Part shown: one piece after another, positions 2,301 through 48,967 of the stretch
How the letters are laid out: each line of letters starts with the position of its first letter
Numbering within the stretch: position 1 is the first letter of the stretch
IMG/VR virus record: IMGVR_UViG_3300044815_000143
Coordinates: 1 to 56,304 of that record
Strand: one strand, 5' to 3'
From: a virus
Lineage: Duplodnaviria; Caudoviricetes
DNA length: 56,304 nucleotides
Notes under the pieces: model-generated
The model's input: the letters and a program-made list of their open reading frames with translations, nothing else
What the model was told of the DNA's origin: nothing
The model's database searches: none
Translations under genes and position numbers: made by a program

Positions 2301-5300
2301 CGAATACGAAGGTTCGCCGGAGTGTTAGACGAGATGATGACCACGTCGCTGACTTGAGCCGTGGACAGGAAAATTTCATCTGGGCGGCAACGCACTTCGA
2401 AACCATCACCGAAATAGCTCTGGTCGCTGACCGGAACCAGAACGATGCTAGAAATGACATTGGCGAGGTTCTGGTGGATGTACGCGGCCAGTTCGGTGTA
2501 GTAGAATGTCTCGCCGAAATCCCACATGTTGACCGAGAAATAGTTGTTGATCGCCCGGATGATCTGCGACGAGATTTCACCATCGCTCAGCGTCGCATTC
2601 GGCAATTTCACGACCTTGAATTGCGTGCGCAATTCGTCAGCCGAACCCTTGCCAAACAAGAACTTGTACTTGGCCGGGCGCCAGACCAGACCATCCGAGA
2701 ACATGCGATAGGCTTCGAATTGCTGGAACGCCAAGCGCAGATCAAGTTCCGTGGGCGGTGCAGGCATATCGGCCGGGTCCGACCCATTGCTGATCCACAG
2801 ACGAGTCAAATAATCGTACTCCGAGGTCAGCACGAACATGTCGTGATTGTTGGTCGGAGAAGGATCGATGCGGTGGTCGCTGTCGGCGTAATGCTTCCAC
2901 TGAAAAATGACCGATTCGGGAATTTCCCAGCCGCTAGAGCCCGGAACCTGCATGGACCCCGAGGCATACCATTTGGCGGCGATGTTCGTTCCACGACCGA
3001 TAGCGCTGGTGAACTCTCCCGGAACCTTGGCCGTCCAGCCGGTGTCGGTGCGAACGAAGAATAAGCCCGTGGCGCGGTCAAACGCTAGGGTGGCGGTCGG
3101 AACCGAGGCTTGGTAGGCGATGCGATCCGTCGCTGCCGGGAACACCCAGACACCGTAGATCGGCGCGGCGCCATACTGCGTGTCATATTGCCAGAACAGA
3201 TACTGGTTGCGGATATCGTTGTCGATCACGCGGGAGAACAAATCAGGATCATCCGGGTAACCGTTCAGGTTCTCGTCGGCCAGTCGAACGCTCGTGCGAC
3301 GTGGGTTCGCCGATCCATCACGGTTGACGTAGATGCGGTTGATGTTCAGGTCATAGTCGCGGCCCAGACCCATACCGGTATCTGCGCTCACGTCCTCGTT
3401 GACGCGCATGATGCGAACGATATCCGACTGGGCAAGACCCGTTTCGGAATCGACCGTGCGGCGACCGTCATTGTACCATTGGACGTTCTTGATGCTCTCG
3501 AAGACGTAGCGAATGCCATTGGCCATGATCGCCCAAACGCCGTTCGAGCCCATGGCAGAATAATTCACGTCCGACACCTTGAACGTCGTAGCCGGGCTCG
3601 GAAGAACGTTTGTGTCAGAAGTAAGGTCGGTGACGACCCACGGCTCGGAAGCCTCGTTGAAATCATACCACAGCGTGAACGAGCGCTTGGCCACGACCTT
3701 GGCCGTGATGGCGATCACCGCGCCACTATCGAGCGAGGCATTGAAGGGCGGTACGATGCTTTCGAGCACGGCGGCGTTGGCAACGCCCAGCGAGAGCGTT
3801 ACGGGGCCTGCTGAGCCTGCTGGGGCCGCTGTGTAGGCATCCTCGACTGTTCCGACCATGTTGGCGATGGTCGCCCACGATTCCTTGCCGCCGGTGTTGA
3901 ATTTCAGCGTGGCTCCGGGGACGATATGAGCATTGACGGGGCCGCCGAACCAACCGGTGCTGGAGAACGTCGTGTCATCGGCACGGACCCATGTCGTGGA
4001 GGTGACGACATTGGCATTGGCCAACAGGAACTGACGTGAGTAATCGGCGACTTCCTGCCGCTCCAGCATCGGCTGGATGTAAGTGGCGATCAGGTCGGAG
4101 GCCTCTACGACGAAATTCTGCACTTCGTCGTAGATATTGTAGGTTTCCTTGAAGAACATGCCGTCGTCTGAGAAAACGTTCACATCTTGATAGTTTCCGG
4201 TCGGATCGTTCAGGTCGATGAAACGGCTGTGACCGGAATAGATGCGGTTGACGGCCTTGAGCTTCAGAGCAAGATTGCTCTGGAGAGGGAACGTGTTGTA
4301 ATCCTCTCCCGAAACCATGCGGTTCTGGGTTGCGTAAACGGACGGAGCACGGCTCTTGATCTGATCGTCGGTCTCGCGCGGGGTCGAGTTCGAGATTGCG
4401 TCTTGCAGCGAAAACGTTACGGTCAGGTTCTTGGCTACGCCGCGACGGTTGACGTAGGGGATCGTCATCTTGATCCGGGTCATGTCGGACGGCTTAATCT
4501 GATATTGCAGACCGTTGGAGACCCGGTAGGTGGAACGGATGTTCCCCACCGGGACCGTGCCGAAACGTCCGTCGCTGAAGCGCAAGCTGATCGAGTCGTT
4601 GTCGCGAGTGATCACCGAGAAAATGTCGCGCACAGCGGGGGTATAATTGTTGTAGGTGATGTTCTCGCTGAAAATCGCCGGGACCTTGACCCATTGCGTC
4701 TGCACGGCGCCAGCATCCGACACGGTCTGAACCCAAACGTCGGTGTCGTTGATGCCGGTGGCGACCAAGTCGATGACGCGGTTCTCAGTCGGAACCGAAA
4801 TGTTCACGGTTTGGCGGGCAGTTGTGCCCTGCTTGAACATGAAGAAGAAACCGGTCTGCCCGCTGGAATTACCGTTGCCGTCGTTTCGATAGATCAGATT
4901 GAAAGCGTTGGCATCGTTGGGCTCACGCTCGAAGAACCCGCCACCATCCTCGAAATCGACGTTGACGACTTCAAAGTCCATGGTCCGGCCGCTGGCCTTG
5001 GCCGAGAAACCCGGTTTCATCGTGGCCATCGCGTTGTTCAGGCGATAACTCTGGGTACGAACATCGGCGACCGTGCCGGTCTTCATCGGCACGCCGAATT
5101 GGTTGGTCGAGATAAAAGCGCTGTTCAGCACGAGGATAAAGCGTTCGAACCAATCGGAATCGTCCGGATTGTCCCACTTGACCGTCACGCCGTTCAGATT
5201 CACTCCAAAACCGTCGTACACATCGTCATCGGTCGAGACTTCGACCAGCTTGACGATGCCCTGTGCGGTTTGGTTGCGGCGCGGATTGTAGGAGATAAAG

Positions 5301-12846: not shown

Positions 12847-13419
12847 ATGAAAATGACCAAATTGCTGGGCGCAGTCGCCCTCGTCGCGCTCGGCCTCGCC
12901 GCCTGCTCGCCGCAAGAAGTCGCGATGCAGCAAGCCGCTGCCAACGCTGCCAATCGCAGCGCGTACATCGCCAAGAACAGCCTCGACTTCAACAATTACG
13001 ACCGGCGCCAGCGCCTGAGCGACAACCCGTCCACCATCGTCTGGTGTACGGCGGTCTTCTCGCAACCGGGCGCGCCGATGATCACCGTTCCCATCGTCGG
13101 AAAGCTGACCTCCGGCGGTAAGCGACCCTTCGCGGCCTCGGATGGAACGGCTGGACCCGATGGAATGTATGGCCCGTCTGGAGACTATCGCTACGGTTTC
13201 ACGCCGGGCGGCAACATGGTCGAGTTCACCGGCATCGCCACTTTCTGCACCACCGAGCCGACCGTGTGGCAGAAAGAAAAGACGACCTTGGTCATCGAGA
13301 CCGATCAAACCCTCAAAGCGGCTGCTGACCAAGCGAGCGAGCATCTGAGCCGCGCCACGGCCGCCGGGCGCGCCAACGCGGACAAGGCCCTGAGCGCCGC
13401 CGTTGGAGTTCCCCAATGA
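12847..13419 (+). CDS. Putative lipoprotein
   Basis: Signal peptide with LAAC lipobox. Confidence 0.75.
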   Translation: MKMTKLLGAVALVALGLAACSPQEVAMQQAAANAANRSAYIAKNSLDFNNYDRRQRLSDNPSTIVWCTAVFSQPGAPMITVPIVGKLTSGGKRPFAASDGTAGPDGMYGPSGDYRYGFTPGGNMVEFTGIATFCTTEPTVWQKEKTTLVIETDQTLKAAADQASEHLSRATAAGRANADKALSAAVGVPQ

Positions 13420-13799
13420 AGACCGTCTCTATCATCGTTCTGTTCTTCGTCGGCATCATCCTGCTGGGCTTCGCCTTCGGCTGGATCGGAACGGGGGCGG
13501 ACATCGTCTCCCCGGCGAACGTCAAGAAACAATGGGCGGAAGCCTATCGCAACGACACCGCCCTGAAGGCTTCGGCCCTGAACGTCTGCGGAGCCGAAAA
13601 GCTCGTGGCAGGCGCGACCTCGGATGCCGAGCGTATCGCCCGCCAGTCGCAACTGAGCGCCTACGAGCAGAACTATGCTCGCATCGCCTCGGACTATGAC
13701 GCGGCCGTCAGCAATGCGTTCGAGGCGAAGTTCGTCAAGCCGGGTGATCTGCCGATCCAAGCGCCGACGTTGGCCCATGCCAAAGCGGCCTGCGAATGA
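13416..13799 (+). CDS. Membrane-anchored protein
   Basis: N-terminal hydrophobic helix; ATGA overlap. Confidence 0.75.
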   Translation: MKTVSIIVLFFVGIILLGFAFGWIGTGADIVSPANVKKQWAEAYRNDTALKASALNVCGAEKLVAGATSDAERIARQSQLSAYEQNYARIASDYDAAVSNAFEAKFVKPGDLPIQAPTLAHAKAACE

Positions 13800-14074
13800 A
13801 ACCCATCGCCATCGGGGCGGTTCTGTGTGTTCTGGGCACAGGGGGTTTAATCGCCTCCTGCGCGCCACAAGTCACACAGGCCCAGCGTGAGCAATGGGCT
13901 CTGCAAGATGCGGTGGCGCGCTCGAACGTCATCCGATCCTGTAAGAACGGCGTTCTGCTGGGTCAGGACCCTCAGTCCGACCGCTATACGATGATCCAGT
14001 TGACGCGCAATGGGATCATCCGTAGCTGGGTTCCGGACGAGGTTGGAAAGAACCCCACGTCGTTCTGTGAATAA
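13796..14074 (+). CDS. Putative small lipoprotein
   Basis: Hydrophobic N-terminus ending IASC; ATGA overlap. Confidence 0.65.
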   Translation: MKPIAIGAVLCVLGTGGLIASCAPQVTQAQREQWALQDAVARSNVIRSCKNGVLLGQDPQSDRYTMIQLTRNGIIRSWVPDEVGKNPTSFCE

Positions 14075-14079
14075 GCTAG

Positions 14080-14109
14080 TTGACGAAACATAACTGGTGT
14101 GAGTAAATA
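14080..14109 (+). promoter_or_regulatory. Promoter of the tRNA-Arg locus (TTGACG -35; GTAAAT/TAAATA -10)
   Basis: TTGACG 14080-14085, 17-18 nt spacer, TAAATA 14104-14109, ATG 5 nt later. Confidence 0.7.
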
Positions 14110-14114
14110 GGACT

Positions 14115-14147
14115 ATGACCTACACCATTTCGAGACGCAGGCGTTAA
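14115..14147 (+). CDS. Putative Arg-sensing leader peptide MTYTISRRRR
   Basis: ATG ACC TAC ACC ATT TCG AGA CGC AGG CGT TAA, directly upstream of two Arg tRNA/tRNA-like genes. Confidence 0.6.
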   Translation: MTYTISRRRR

Positions 14148-14213
14148 TCGCCCCTTCAGCCCAAGCCACAGGTTTGGGCTCGTCTTCGTTCAGGTCTATT
14201 CCCGCATACTTAC

Positions 14214-14301
14214 GACCCGTGTCCCGGCAACTGCCTTCTAAGCAGTTGACATTAAAGCGCTGGAAGGAAGTCGAGAGGTTCGATCCCTCCACGGGTCTCC
14301 A
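14214..14301 (+). tRNA. Non-canonical (D-armless) tRNA-Arg(UCU)-like RNA
   Basis: Acceptor GACCCGT/ACGGGTC + T + CCA; anticodon arm CAACTGC-CTTCTAA-GCAGTTG; T-arm GAGG-TTCGATC-CCTC; only 7 nt between acceptor and anticodon stems. Confidence 0.65.
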
Positions 14302-14317
14302 GTATTAGGAATCCGAC

Positions 14318-14470
14318 ATGAACGTCACCGAACAAGAGTTCAGAGAAGCCGTGGATGAAGCCTACGGTCTCGTTGAACCATATATCGTCGGGGCCAAGAA
14401 AGTTCCGATCCGTGTCGTCACCCTCCGGCGAATTGTCGAGGGCCTGAAACTTGGCTACAAGCTCCCATAG
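14318..14470 (+). CDS. Small hypothetical protein (50 aa) between the tRNAs
   Basis: AGGA RBS; MNVTEQEFREAVDEAYGLVEPY...GYKLP; stop codon lies inside the 5' end of tRNA-Arg(CCU). Confidence 0.55.
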   Translation: MNVTEQEFREAVDEAYGLVEPYIVGAKKVPIRVVTLRRIVEGLKLGYKLP

Positions 14471-14537
14471 CTCAGACGGATAGAGCGTTCGTTTCCTAAA
14501 CGAGAGGTCGCAGGTTCGAGTCCTGCTGGGGGCGCCA
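14461..14537 (+). tRNA. tRNA-Arg(CCU)
   Basis: Canonical cloverleaf GCTCCCA...TGGGGGC-G-CCA; anticodon loop TT-CCT-AA; GGTTCGAGTCC T-arm. Confidence 0.95.
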
Positions 14538-14697
14538 AAATATTTATTTTGCATCTACAGTGACTTAACATCAATGACACAATTTGAACACTATTGTGAC
14601 ACAAAAGTTTAACGATATTAAGTACTTAAAACAATAAAAAGCATAGCTCACGACTAAATACAGACATCGTTCAGTATCTGTATTTGGGGTGGCGACC

Positions 14698-15798
14698 ATG
14701 CTTTCTAAGAAATCGAAAATTCTATTTGTATTGAAGTTCCGTGAAACACCGGGCGGCGATTATTCCTATTCTGCTGGATGGGGTGATGGCAAAGGAAAGT
14801 TCCTGCATAGCGGGCTCTACAACAGCGCCAACATGGTCCACACCATGCTCAAGGAGCAGGGTTACGACACCAAACTGGTCCACGTCATCGACAACAACGC
14901 GATCCACAAAGAGATCGTCAAGTTCGGCGCCACGCACGTCGTGATCGAAGCGTTCTGGGTTGTCCCGTCCAAGTTCGACGAACTGTTCCGGGTCTGCCCA
15001 AATGTCAAGTTCATCATCCGTAACCATTCTGAGTCACCATTCCTCGCCAACGAGGGCATGGCGTTTGAATGGACCATGAAGTACGTCGATAAGCCCAACG
15101 TCATCATGTCCTGCAACGCGCCGCGCATGGTCGAAGAAACCCGCTTCCTCGTCCAGACCAAGTACCCCCATTGGTCCCGCAAAGAGGTGGAGCATAAGGT
15201 TCCGCACCTACCGAACTATTATCCGGTCTCCAAGGATCACAAAAATCCCGGATTTTGGATTCGCGGGGACAACACTGTCCACATCGGCTGTTTCGGAGCG
15301 ATCCGCCCGCTGAAGGCGCACATCACCCAAGCCATCGGCGCTCTAAAATTCGCCGAAGACAAGGGCATGAAACTGAAATTCCACATCAACGGCGGCCGGA
15401 TTGAAATGAACGGAGCCCCAATCCTGAAGAACCTGAGGGCGATTTTCGACGAGTATGCGGGTAAGCACGAGCTTGTCGAGCACGCTTGGATGGCCCACGA
15501 TCAATTCAAGGCGTTGGTGGGCCGTATGGACTTGGTGACGCAGGTATCCTTCTCCGAGACCTTCAACATCGTAGCGGCCGACGCAATCACCCAAGGCGTG
15601 CCCACGATCACCTCCAAGGAAATTTCATGGTCATCGTGCCTGTTCAGGGCTGATCCGACCGAAAGCAATGACATCGCCAATAAGATGGGGCGGGCCTATT
15701 GGGCGCACCGCAATTTCACGTGGTTCAATCCGAGCCGCAAGGGCCTGATCCGTTATAACGCCAATAGCGTCAAGAAATGGACTTCTTATTTCGACTAG
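14698..15798 (+). CDS. Glycosyltransferase (GT-B/GT4-like)
   Basis: GCFGAIRPLK and SFSETFNIVAADAITQGVPTI motifs; TAAATA at 14655-14660. Confidence 0.75.
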   Translation: MLSKKSKILFVLKFRETPGGDYSYSAGWGDGKGKFLHSGLYNSANMVHTMLKEQGYDTKLVHVIDNNAIHKEIVKFGATHVVIEAFWVVPSKFDELFRVCPNVKFIIRNHSESPFLANEGMAFEWTMKYVDKPNVIMSCNAPRMVEETRFLVQTKYPHWSRKEVEHKVPHLPNYYPVSKDHKNPGFWIRGDNTVHIGCFGAIRPLKAHITQAIGALKFAEDKGMKLKFHINGGRIEMNGAPILKNLRAIFDEYAGKHELVEHAWMAHDQFKALVGRMDLVTQVSFSETFNIVAADAITQGVPTITSKEISWSSCLFRADPTESNDIANKMGRAYWAHRNFTWFNPSRKGLIRYNANSVKKWTSYFD

Positions 15799-47760: not shown

Positions 47761-48515
47761 AGAGGTGACACTGACGTGTCACCTCTGCTGATCACGGAAA
47801 CGAACTGCGCATTCGCTTGTCCGTTCCGCAATCAGCAGTCAAATCAATGAGAAACGAAAGCAATAAAAACGAATATGTCATACCCTAGATTATAGTCTCT
47901 TTCTCCCCCTCTCAAAATATACAAGTATGCGTAGCATTTTGGACGTAATGAAACGTAACCTTCATGCCACGACACCTGTGTATTTTGAGAGGGGGATTGT
48001 CTTACCCTGAGTCAGTAAGCCTTTTCGTAAGTCACTTGCTGCGTTTATAGCAGCGGCAGGCGGTCTCCCGAAGACCTGCTCGTCGCAACCCAATCCCGAC
48101 AGGTTCCACCCAATGGTCAGAGTTTGGGGTTTAGGGCTCAATTCCGCTTGCGCGGATTAAATTGGCCTTCCTTGCCTCTGAGGTGAACGTTTGTAAGTCA
48201 GACGGTTATGATCCCTCCGGAGAAGGATCAAGCTTGCATACTCGGCCCGAAAATGACCGGCATGCACAGAGAACTGTCAAATGATTCAAGACATAGTTCT
48301 CTTCTTGTTCAGTGCCTTTGTCGTAATCCATAAGGATTACAGTGGGAAGCCGTTGACATCCACCGCGCGCTTTTATGCACAGTCCGCGTGGAGCGTCCGT
48401 CCCGTGGTCGTTCTACCGCGTATCCGCCTAAACCCCGTTCGATGGGTAGTAAAGAAAGATTTCAACGCTTTGCGACGAGCATGGCCGCGAGTGATAATGC
48501 TCTGAACGAATATGA
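47761..48515. ncRNA. Large structured non-coding region (candidate long ncRNA or origin)
   Basis: Nested helices 48077-88/48470-81 (12 bp), 48126-35/48427-36 (10 bp), 48032-39/48487-94; 20-bp stem 47904-23/47977-96; many local hairpins. Confidence 0.55.
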
Positions 48516-48925: not shown

Positions 48926-48967
48926 TCACGTTGAGTGACACGCGGTGATTTTACCTAAATAATCACC

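Follow-up and report, generated by a model that had tools for sequence, protein, structure and literature searches.

The DNA analysed here, called the window throughout, is a virus record of 56,304 bases that by estimate covers about 10% of its genome, and the element in question occupies positions 14079-14213, which are the head of a phage tRNA-Arg transcription unit. At its centre lies a short open reading frame (ORF), MTYTISRRRR, whose last four codons all specify Arg and which precedes two RNAs carrying Arg anticodons. Judged by its sequence and by comparison with related phages, this mini-ORF is a real, conserved leader written in the codons of the tRNAs that follow, and it probably lets ribosomes report how well Arg codons are being decoded. 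The best explanation of the unit as a whole is a translated Arg-codon sensor whose leader fold sets the yield of the downstream RNAs, a reading that we hold with reasonable, though not strong, confidence.

The unit opens on the plus strand with a promoter-like module, GTTGACGA-N17-TAAATA, at 14079-14109. Here GTTGACGA occupies 14079-86, with the -35-like hexamer TTGACG at 14080-14085, while the -10-like TAAATA lies at 14104-14109; on this sequence evidence the module is likely a promoter. An ATG placed 5 nucleotides (nt) 3' of TAAATA starts the mini-ORF (14115-14147, +), which comprises 10 codons and a TAA stop (ATG ACC TAC ACC ATT TCG AGA CGC AGG CGT TAA) and is probably leaderless. As the earlier note on this DNA had read it, the tandem run at 14133-14144 (+), AGA CGC AGG CGT, consists of four different Arg codons, and these make up four of the nine sense codons after Met. 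Such an arrangement is rare. When all six frames of the window are read, a stop comes directly after four Arg codons in two places, and only MTYTISRRRR has an in-frame ATG; in ~31.5 kb of loci from Caulobacter phage CcrBL9, the ATG-started ORFs of this type are the leader described below and one other. AGA and AGG account for 3.4% and 4.7%, respectively, of the Arg codons in the 38 long ORFs of the window, and these two rare codons supply half of the leader run (2/4), matching the UCU and CCU anticodons found downstream.

The earlier note had pointed to related phages as the place to look for an Arg-run mini-ORF ahead of tRNA-Arg, and such an ORF is present in a complete 578-kb phage (G001) and in five sequences of Caulobacter Bertelyviruses. 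The window gene at 13416-13799 shares 66.7% DNA identity with gp406 of CcrBL9, in which a tRNA-Arg(UCU) and a tRNA-Arg(CCG) gene adjoin the gp406 gene on the opposite strand. Located 18 nt 5' of this tRNA pair is the CcrBL9 leader, ATG ACT TTT ACG GCC ACG ATC AGA ACG GTC TCC AGG CGG CGG CGC TAA, encoding MTFTATIRTVSRRRR. Its counterparts encode MISTVTIRTVSRRRR in CcrSC, MTFSGTIRKTIRRRR in BL47 and MTFSGTTRKTIRRRR in RB23 and CcrC3, and across these phages the leader stands 17-18 nt before tRNA-Arg(UCU) and tRNA-Arg(CCG). The five sequences align as a 15-codon frame free of indels, in which AGA and the block AGG CGG CGG CGC TAA are invariant and the other codons differ at about 40% of their bases, through both replacement and silent changes. 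DNA similarity between the BL9 type and the BL47 type starts exactly at the leader ATG, and the Bertelyvirus run contains CGG twice where the second tRNA has the anticodon CCG.

In G001 the leader reads GTTGACGA-N17-TAAATA-N5-ATG AAC ATC CGG GCG AAC AAT GTG TTG AGA CGC AGG CGG TAA, which encodes MNIRANNVLRRRR, and is followed after 19 nt by tRNA-Arg(UCU), an extra ORF, a homologue of a 50-codon ORF that the window also carries, and tRNA-Arg(CCU). The leader frame is thus kept at lengths of 10, 13 and 15 codons, and each time the stop directly follows the run. When the Arg run of the window is compared with that of the Bertelyviruses, all four base differences are synonymous, including a first-position change between AGG and CGG. 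Contigs of three DNA runs were compared over this region, and a ~95% relative from another soil study (run X3) has two changes in the leader, Ile to Val at 14127 and an additional C behind the stop, with no listed change in the Arg run.

The codon run changes when the downstream tRNA changes. A scan of IMG/VR for the promoter-like module, blind to codon content, returned seven matches: four are in AT-rich contigs and have no tRNA close by, and the remaining three, in GC-rich jumbo phage records, all combine a cognate-run mini-ORF with the matching tRNA (Arg, Thr and Thr). The spacing within the module is the same in the Arg and Thr units of G001 and in the Thr unit of a second jumbo phage (G002) as in the window. 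The Thr leader of G001 encodes MNRMTTRTTTTIA and precedes three tRNA-Thr genes, and that of G002 encodes MRMTVTTRTTTTG and precedes tRNA-Thr. Mixed clusters have mixed leaders. In G001 a leader with many Ser, His, Tyr and Cys residues (L195, ~103690-103932), MTTIISSHSYCYSSSYHSGSGLLSCEDFTG, precedes a Ser3-Cys-Tyr2-His cluster, and in CcrBL9 a 39-codon ORF (L033 1262-1500) draws 33 of its 38 residues from the set specified by the 13 tRNAs that follow it, a cognate content reached by none of 93 background small ORFs. We also observed that the mixed leader of G001 is followed by two terminators of the hairpin-plus-U-tract kind, where CCCCG and CCGGGG arms could pair alternately, as in a classical attenuator.

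Leaders that lie directly upstream of their tRNA genes on the same strand, have a matching run or composition and are conserved were thus found in the window, G001, G002, the Bertelyviruses and, for the mixed type, CcrBL9. Since the run follows the identity of the tRNA, a peptide function common to these leaders is excluded, and a reading purely at the RNA level becomes unlikely. The kept frame, the synonymous changes within the run, the stop directly after it and the Thr runs before tRNA-Thr together argue for an element that is constrained at the level of codons, linked to translation and tied to the downstream tRNAs. The sensor logic is in this sense well supported by the comparison among phages.

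Searches of wider scope added few loci. An IMG/VR pattern of four MGN codons, TAA, 17-47 nt and a tRNA with a YCU anticodon loop returned four loci, namely CcrBL9, CcrSC, G001 and a chance match where an integrase gene ends by a tRNA-Arg (L076). A generic form of the scan, in which four MGN codons and TAA are followed after 17-47 nt by TAGCTCA, gave at least 118 stretches at no fewer than 80 loci and was uninformative, as MGN also covers the Ser codons AGY; among the matches listed, 75 of 80 are not at a tRNA, and the five that are (Met, Ala, Gly, Arg, Val) include none with a convincing ATG-started Arg leader. The pattern CAGAA-N8-AGGCGGCGGCGCTAA, which was tried and set aside, occurs in CcrBL9 and CcrSC and once by chance inside a coding gene (L041). 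IMG/VR searches with the 369-, 127- and 92-residue neighbour proteins found no related loci, and tblastn with the 127-residue protein recovered only CcrBL9, BL47 and weak Gordonia matches. For an Arg unit in G002, whose record is 72% complete, searches by DNA and by module pattern returned only tRNA-level matches and the Thr unit. Within CcrBL9, the heads of the Gly/Thr, Glu/Asp, Val/Ile, Met and Cys units have no clear cognate leader within 300 nt.

The position of the ATG bears on how the leader would be translated. TAAATA-N5-ATG is found at 5 of the 18 TAAATA sites of the window (P ~1e-5 for one fixed offset), and the four sites other than that of the leader open ORFs of 130, 244, 700 and at least 445 codons; the same arrangement opens long ORFs in G001 too. 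The TAAATA sites that precede an ATG are at 1347(-), 6017(-), 10978(-), 11731(-), 14104(+) and 48956(+), the spacing being N6 at the last of these and N5 elsewhere. The long ORFs that begin in this way leave no room for a Shine-Dalgarno site. The sequences suggest that genes of this class are leaderless, or that this phage group uses a start signal of its own. By analogy with alphaproteobacteria such as Caulobacter, leaderless translation is plausible should the host belong to that class, and kinship with Caulobacter phages is the one ground on which we place it there. In Caulobacter itself, 375 mRNAs are leaderless and are translated as well as those with leaders (PMC4117421).

The minimum free energy (MFE) fold of 14115-14213 has an energy of -31.6 kcal/mol (z -4.15), and none of 200 shuffled sequences folds as well. 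In this structure GACCU (14117-21) pairs with AGGUC (14192-96), and CGAGACG (14131-37) pairs with CGUC-U-UCG (14181-88), so that both segments find their partners in a pyrimidine-rich stretch at 14181-14196 (+). GGCG (14140-43) pairs with CGCC (14149-52) to give a small hairpin, GGCG-UUAAU-CGCC (14140-14152, +), with the UAA stop codon in its loop. A second hairpin of 10 base pairs (bp), AGCCCAAGCC-ACA-GGUUUGGGCU with the tail CGUCUUCGUU, occupies 14158-14180 (+) within the 66-nt spacer between the mini-ORF stop and the UCU RNA, and is found both by folding and by the terminator scan. All of the leader pairings that the earlier note had named, this hairpin included, are reproduced by the MFE fold, in which the partner of the Arg codons is the 3' flank of the hairpin, neither of its arms being involved.

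Pairing of Arg codons with a pyrimidine-rich pre-tRNA 5' flank, with the stop codon near the tip, recurs in the window, G001, BL9 and BL47. The G001 analogue is a GAGACG/UGUCUC helix that ends 3 nt before the tRNA, and in the folds of BL9 and BL47 the Arg run pairs with the spacer. Small hairpins around the stop are also seen in CcrBL9, BL47 and G001; with stems of 4-5 bp in GC-rich sequence, they are weak evidence. The spacer composition complements the run, being C/U-rich after Arg runs and G/U-rich after the Thr run of G001, and a C-rich, G-poor stretch lies 3' of the stop in the window, G001, BL9 and BL47, with a length of 17-19 nt in the relatives. A test of duplexes between leader and tRNA was strong in CcrBL9 (1/500). 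Mimicry of the tRNA 3' acceptor strand by the leader extends over 7 nt in BL47 and RB23 (57 and 98 of 5000 shuffles, respectively), is borderline in G001 (6 nt, 268/5000 shuffles) and is absent by the same shuffle test in the window, BL9, SC and the Thr unit of G001. Pairing of the leader with the tRNA body or the 5' acceptor strand was considered as a common mechanism and was not adopted for the window, where it did not reach significance.

Downstream of the leader, an 88-nt RNA at 14214-14301 (+) has the anticodon loop CUUCUAA (UCU) and an encoded CCA end, and is followed by the 50-codon ORF (14318-14470, +) and by tRNA-Arg(CCU) (14461-14537, +; 64.5 bits with the Rfam tRNA model, match 14461-14534). 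ARAGORN calls only the last of these as a tRNA anywhere in the window and does not call the UCU RNA, which gives a sub-threshold match to the Rfam tRNA-Sec model at 14213-14298 (27.1 bits, cut-off 47). The UCU RNA is a member of a genuine, covarying structured family of D-armless tRNA-like RNAs. In an alignment of five sequences, 98.3% of cells are paired and nine pairs have changed on both sides. Members of the family share an 8-bp acceptor stem, an extended anticodon arm of 5+6 bp with the loop CUUCUAA or CUUCUAC (UCU) and a T stem of 4 bp; the segment GGAAGGAAGU is invariant, and each RNA ends in an encoded UCCA. The family is common to the window phage, a jumbo phage of alphaproteobacterial type, to Acinetobacter T4-like phages (it is unannotated in KARL-1) and to two AT-rich metagenome contigs; besides the window copy, its members lie at L001 1495-1579, L042 1018-1102, L043 1215-1299 (-) and L004 ~3222-3312 (-). 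G001 carries a canonical tRNA-Arg(UCU) where the window has the D-armless RNA.

In both the window and G001 the 50-codon ORF extends 10 nt into the tRNA-Arg(CCU) gene, its TAG stop forming positions 8-10 of the tRNA. The G001 homologue (L199 1231-1383 (-)) has the same length and position and 67% identity over 30 residues (E 3e-14), and the segment comprising the ORF and tRNA-Arg(CCU) is 78% identical between the two phages. The product matches no Pfam or PHROG family. Ribonuclease (RNase) P cleavage at tRNA-Arg(CCU) would remove the stop codon of this ORF.

We propose that the sensor would work as follows. The module would start an RNA at or beside the ATG (14115), and the dwell time of a ribosome on the run would report the decoding of Arg codons, AGA and AGG above all. 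While the ribosome occupies the run, 14131-37 and 14117-21 would be kept from pairing with the pre-tRNA flank at 14181-96; once the ribosome has gone, the leader would close into a compact fold around the hairpin at 14158-14180. The open or closed state of the leader would then set the yield of the downstream RNAs, amounting to feedback on tRNA-Arg supply. The output step might be pausing or weak termination at the hairpin, which would apply to the window alone, or a change in how readily processing enzymes reach the precursor. As to direction, the logic of such a circuit leads us to infer that more tRNA would be produced when decoding is slow, and the trigger might be depletion or cleavage of host tRNA-Arg, as the earlier note had proposed. 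We would extend this picture tentatively, with confidence falling a little short of even, to giant alphaproteobacterial phages and probably others: their tRNA genes may be self-gauging units, in which a leaderless mini-ORF written in the codons of a unit's own tRNAs sets, through folding of the pre-tRNA leader, how much tRNA is made or matured, and in the window the Arg gauge, retained although a D-armless RNA would have replaced the canonical tRNA-Arg(UCU), may govern a non-canonical, possibly decoy, RNA.

A number of observations weigh against this sensor, and several of them concern its output. The earlier note had remarked that the hairpin at 14158-14180 lacks a U-tract, and this is borne out: the clear terminators of this phage have 3-5 U right after the stem, whereas here the tail is the atypical CGUCUUCGUU. 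The hairpin is present in the ~95% relative (run X3, records 17-18) and absent from G001 and the Bertelyviruses, and is thus specific to the lineage of the window. With this absence and this tail, the suggestion that it serves as the output device of the leader is not supported. No hairpin with a U-tract stands between the leader and the regulated genes in the window, G001 or the Bertelyviruses. A competing partner for the 5' arm of the hairpin (14158-67) was not seen upstream by eye, no systematic search having been made, and a ribosome positioned on the stop codon would shield the RNA no further than ~14157. A consensus scan does list the hairpin as terminator-like, as one of 7 sites against 4.8 +/- 2.0 in shuffles, a class that is not enriched. 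Possible roles for the hairpin are weak termination, pausing and RNA processing.

Other such observations concern the pairing, the promoter and the RNAs that would be regulated. The energy of the leader-spacer duplex is no better than that of composition-matched shuffles in four of five units (207/1000 for the window), and leader-tRNA pairing is not significant for the window. The promoter proposed in the earlier note is not listed by a simple sigma-70 scan. In G001 and G002 together there are six such modules, and three of them precede transcripts other than tRNAs, whose mini-ORFs comprise 12, 4 and 4 codons. One of these transcripts begins ATGACCTAC, as the window leader does; an ATG at the predicted +1 is a trait of this promoter class and therefore says little by itself. 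Some tRNA units have no leader, namely Cys-Cys-Ala, Val and a pair with CUA anticodons in G001, and the tRNA-Arg genes of the alphaproteobacterial phages DSS3_MAL1 and Atu_ph07 likewise lack one. In DSS3_MAL1 a 48-codon ORF (L038 549-695) without an Arg run ends one base before tRNA-Arg(UCU), and we take its product to resemble a small DUF1127-type protein; in Atu_ph07 a tRNA-Arg(ACG) lies inside a tRNA array. Finally, the earlier claim that AGA and AGG are read by the downstream UCU and CCU RNAs stands as far as the anticodons go, which match; the UCU RNA, however, is D-armless and non-canonical as a tRNA, so that it may fail to decode AGA.

Among other explanations, we consider it quite unlikely that the element acts as an untranslated RNA. 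On that account the purine-rich GAGACGCAGGCG would be kept for pairing with the pre-tRNA 5' flank, in the interest of precursor stability, folding or processing by RNase P or RNase E, the ATG would be the start sequence of the promoter class and the frame would be incidental. The ATG at +1 of the non-tRNA transcripts is in keeping with this, as are the helices that Arg codons form with the pre-tRNA flank in the window and G001, and the invariance of the Bertelyvirus run at the base level is what selection on RNA would also give. Yet the run differs between lineages by synonymous changes only and stays Arg, the frame persists at three ORF lengths with the stop after the run, the same module precedes Thr runs ahead of tRNA-Thr, leaders of mixed content go with mixed clusters, and the complementarity on which the helices depend does not exceed that of shuffles. 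A chance ORF in the spacer between the upstream operon, which ends at 14074, and the tRNA genes, with the hairpin serving as operon terminator, we regard as very improbable. The hairpin is indeed the first after the stop at 14074 and appears terminator-like in the consensus scan, but it is the tRNA-Arg unit, rather than the genes upstream, that the mini-ORF accompanies from phage to phage: the CcrBL9 unit is on the opposite strand from the gp406 homologue and the upstream gene in G001 is unrelated. The rarity of such ORFs in the window and the CcrBL9 loci, and their recurrence in three lineages, likewise speak against chance.

It is also possible, if unlikely, that the mini-ORF is translated without sensing Arg decoding, either as a ribosome shield that protects the nascent pre-tRNA from Rho or nucleases or as a trap, resembling the lambda bar minigenes, that holds host tRNA-Arg as peptidyl-tRNA, the phage meanwhile providing its own. 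The leaderless-like start context agrees with this, and so do the very small size of the ORF and its last sense codon (CGU, CGG or CGC); the C-rich, G-poor spacer found after the stop in all Arg units might let Rho load when the ribosome has departed. Plain shielding, however, needs neither a cognate run nor one that changes with the identity of the tRNA from Arg to Thr, and the strong Shine-Dalgarno site and 2-3 codons of the bar minigenes are not matched here.

Upstream of the unit lies an operon of small ORFs whose products have no assigned function and no Pfam or PHROG family. Neither do a minus-strand ORF of 59 codons at 14113-14292 and the neighbouring ORFs, with the exception of weak glycosyltransferase matches for 14689-15798. 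GTGACAC/GTGTCAC motifs, often as inverted repeats, lie near window promoters (14570-14605, 47761-47786 and 48940-48950) and also upstream of the Bertelyvirus promoters for tRNA-Arg and tRNA-Glu/Asp (L002 and L005 for the Arg promoters); from their placement they may be binding sites for a phage regulator. The two non-tRNA transcripts with 4-codon ORFs, MPYR and MTYY, at L224 (G001 ~112942-112979, -) and L223 (G002 ~371115-371152, +), follow the same TTGAC...TAAATA-N5-ATG module and run for ~90 nt to a hairpin with a U-tract, and may be small RNA genes conserved between both jumbo phages. The CUA-anticodon pair of G001 (109999-110155 (-)) consists of two adjacent genes of the amber-suppressor type, labelled 'Pyl' by ARAGORN, and a tRNA with this anticodon also occurs in the Acinetobacter-phage-like record L004.

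Phage tRNA genes are usually treated as passive helpers in codon usage or as spares against host tRNA nucleases. If the sensor proposed here is correct, phages would gauge the capacity for translation at the level of single codons and tune the supply of tRNA accordingly, and the leader-peptide principle, known from amino-acid operons, would come to include tRNA genes as well as leaderless translation. Such a leader would also provide a compact, portable sensor for the availability of a given tRNA. A cultured system for direct tests exists in Caulobacter CB15 with CcrBL9 or BL47. A full-text literature search, with subscription journals and supplements outside its scope, found no paper on leader ORFs that control tRNA genes.

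Several known systems share features with this leader. Tiny phage ORFs whose translation interacts with one tRNA pool are known from the lambda bar minigenes, but these comprise 2-3 codons behind a strong Shine-Dalgarno site, owe their toxicity to drop-off of peptidyl-tRNA and are not known to be linked to tRNA genes. T-boxes are likewise cis elements, through which the state of one tRNA affects the expression of genes belonging to the same amino-acid family; they differ in that they bind the tRNA directly and need no translation, and a search with the Rfam 15 covariance models (E up to 10) gave no match within 14080-14212. In the tna operon, the leader peptide TnaC exerts Rho-dependent control, and here too a ribosome held at the end of the leader could mask the C-rich, G-poor stretch that follows the stop in all Arg units. 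The relatives, however, have only 17-19 nt between the stop and the structured tRNA, scant room for Rho to load, and it is only the Arg run that is conserved, in contrast to the sensing nascent peptide of TnaC.

The closest likeness is to the leader-peptide attenuators of amino-acid operons and of pheST (trpL, hisL, pheL, thrL, leuL and pheM). As in the trpL/hisL type, a very short ORF would stand at the 5' end of the transcript, the run of cognate codons is its sole conserved content, the stop follows soon after and the ORF is embedded in RNA structure. In contrast to that type, the genes governed are phage tRNA genes rather than biosynthetic or synthetase genes, the window leader has no Shine-Dalgarno site and is probably leaderless, and the signal would be how well particular codons, the rare AGA and AGG among them, can be decoded, and not amino-acid supply alone. 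A pair of terminator and antiterminator was not seen by eye, in an inspection short of a systematic search, and the one hairpin lacks a U-tract and is missing in relatives. Because the leader has no hairpin-plus-U-tract terminator and no antiterminator was seen in that inspection, we do not class it as a classical attenuator. The combination of a conserved sensor with an output structure that is not conserved points instead to an extension of leader-peptide control by a mechanism other than the textbook terminator switch.

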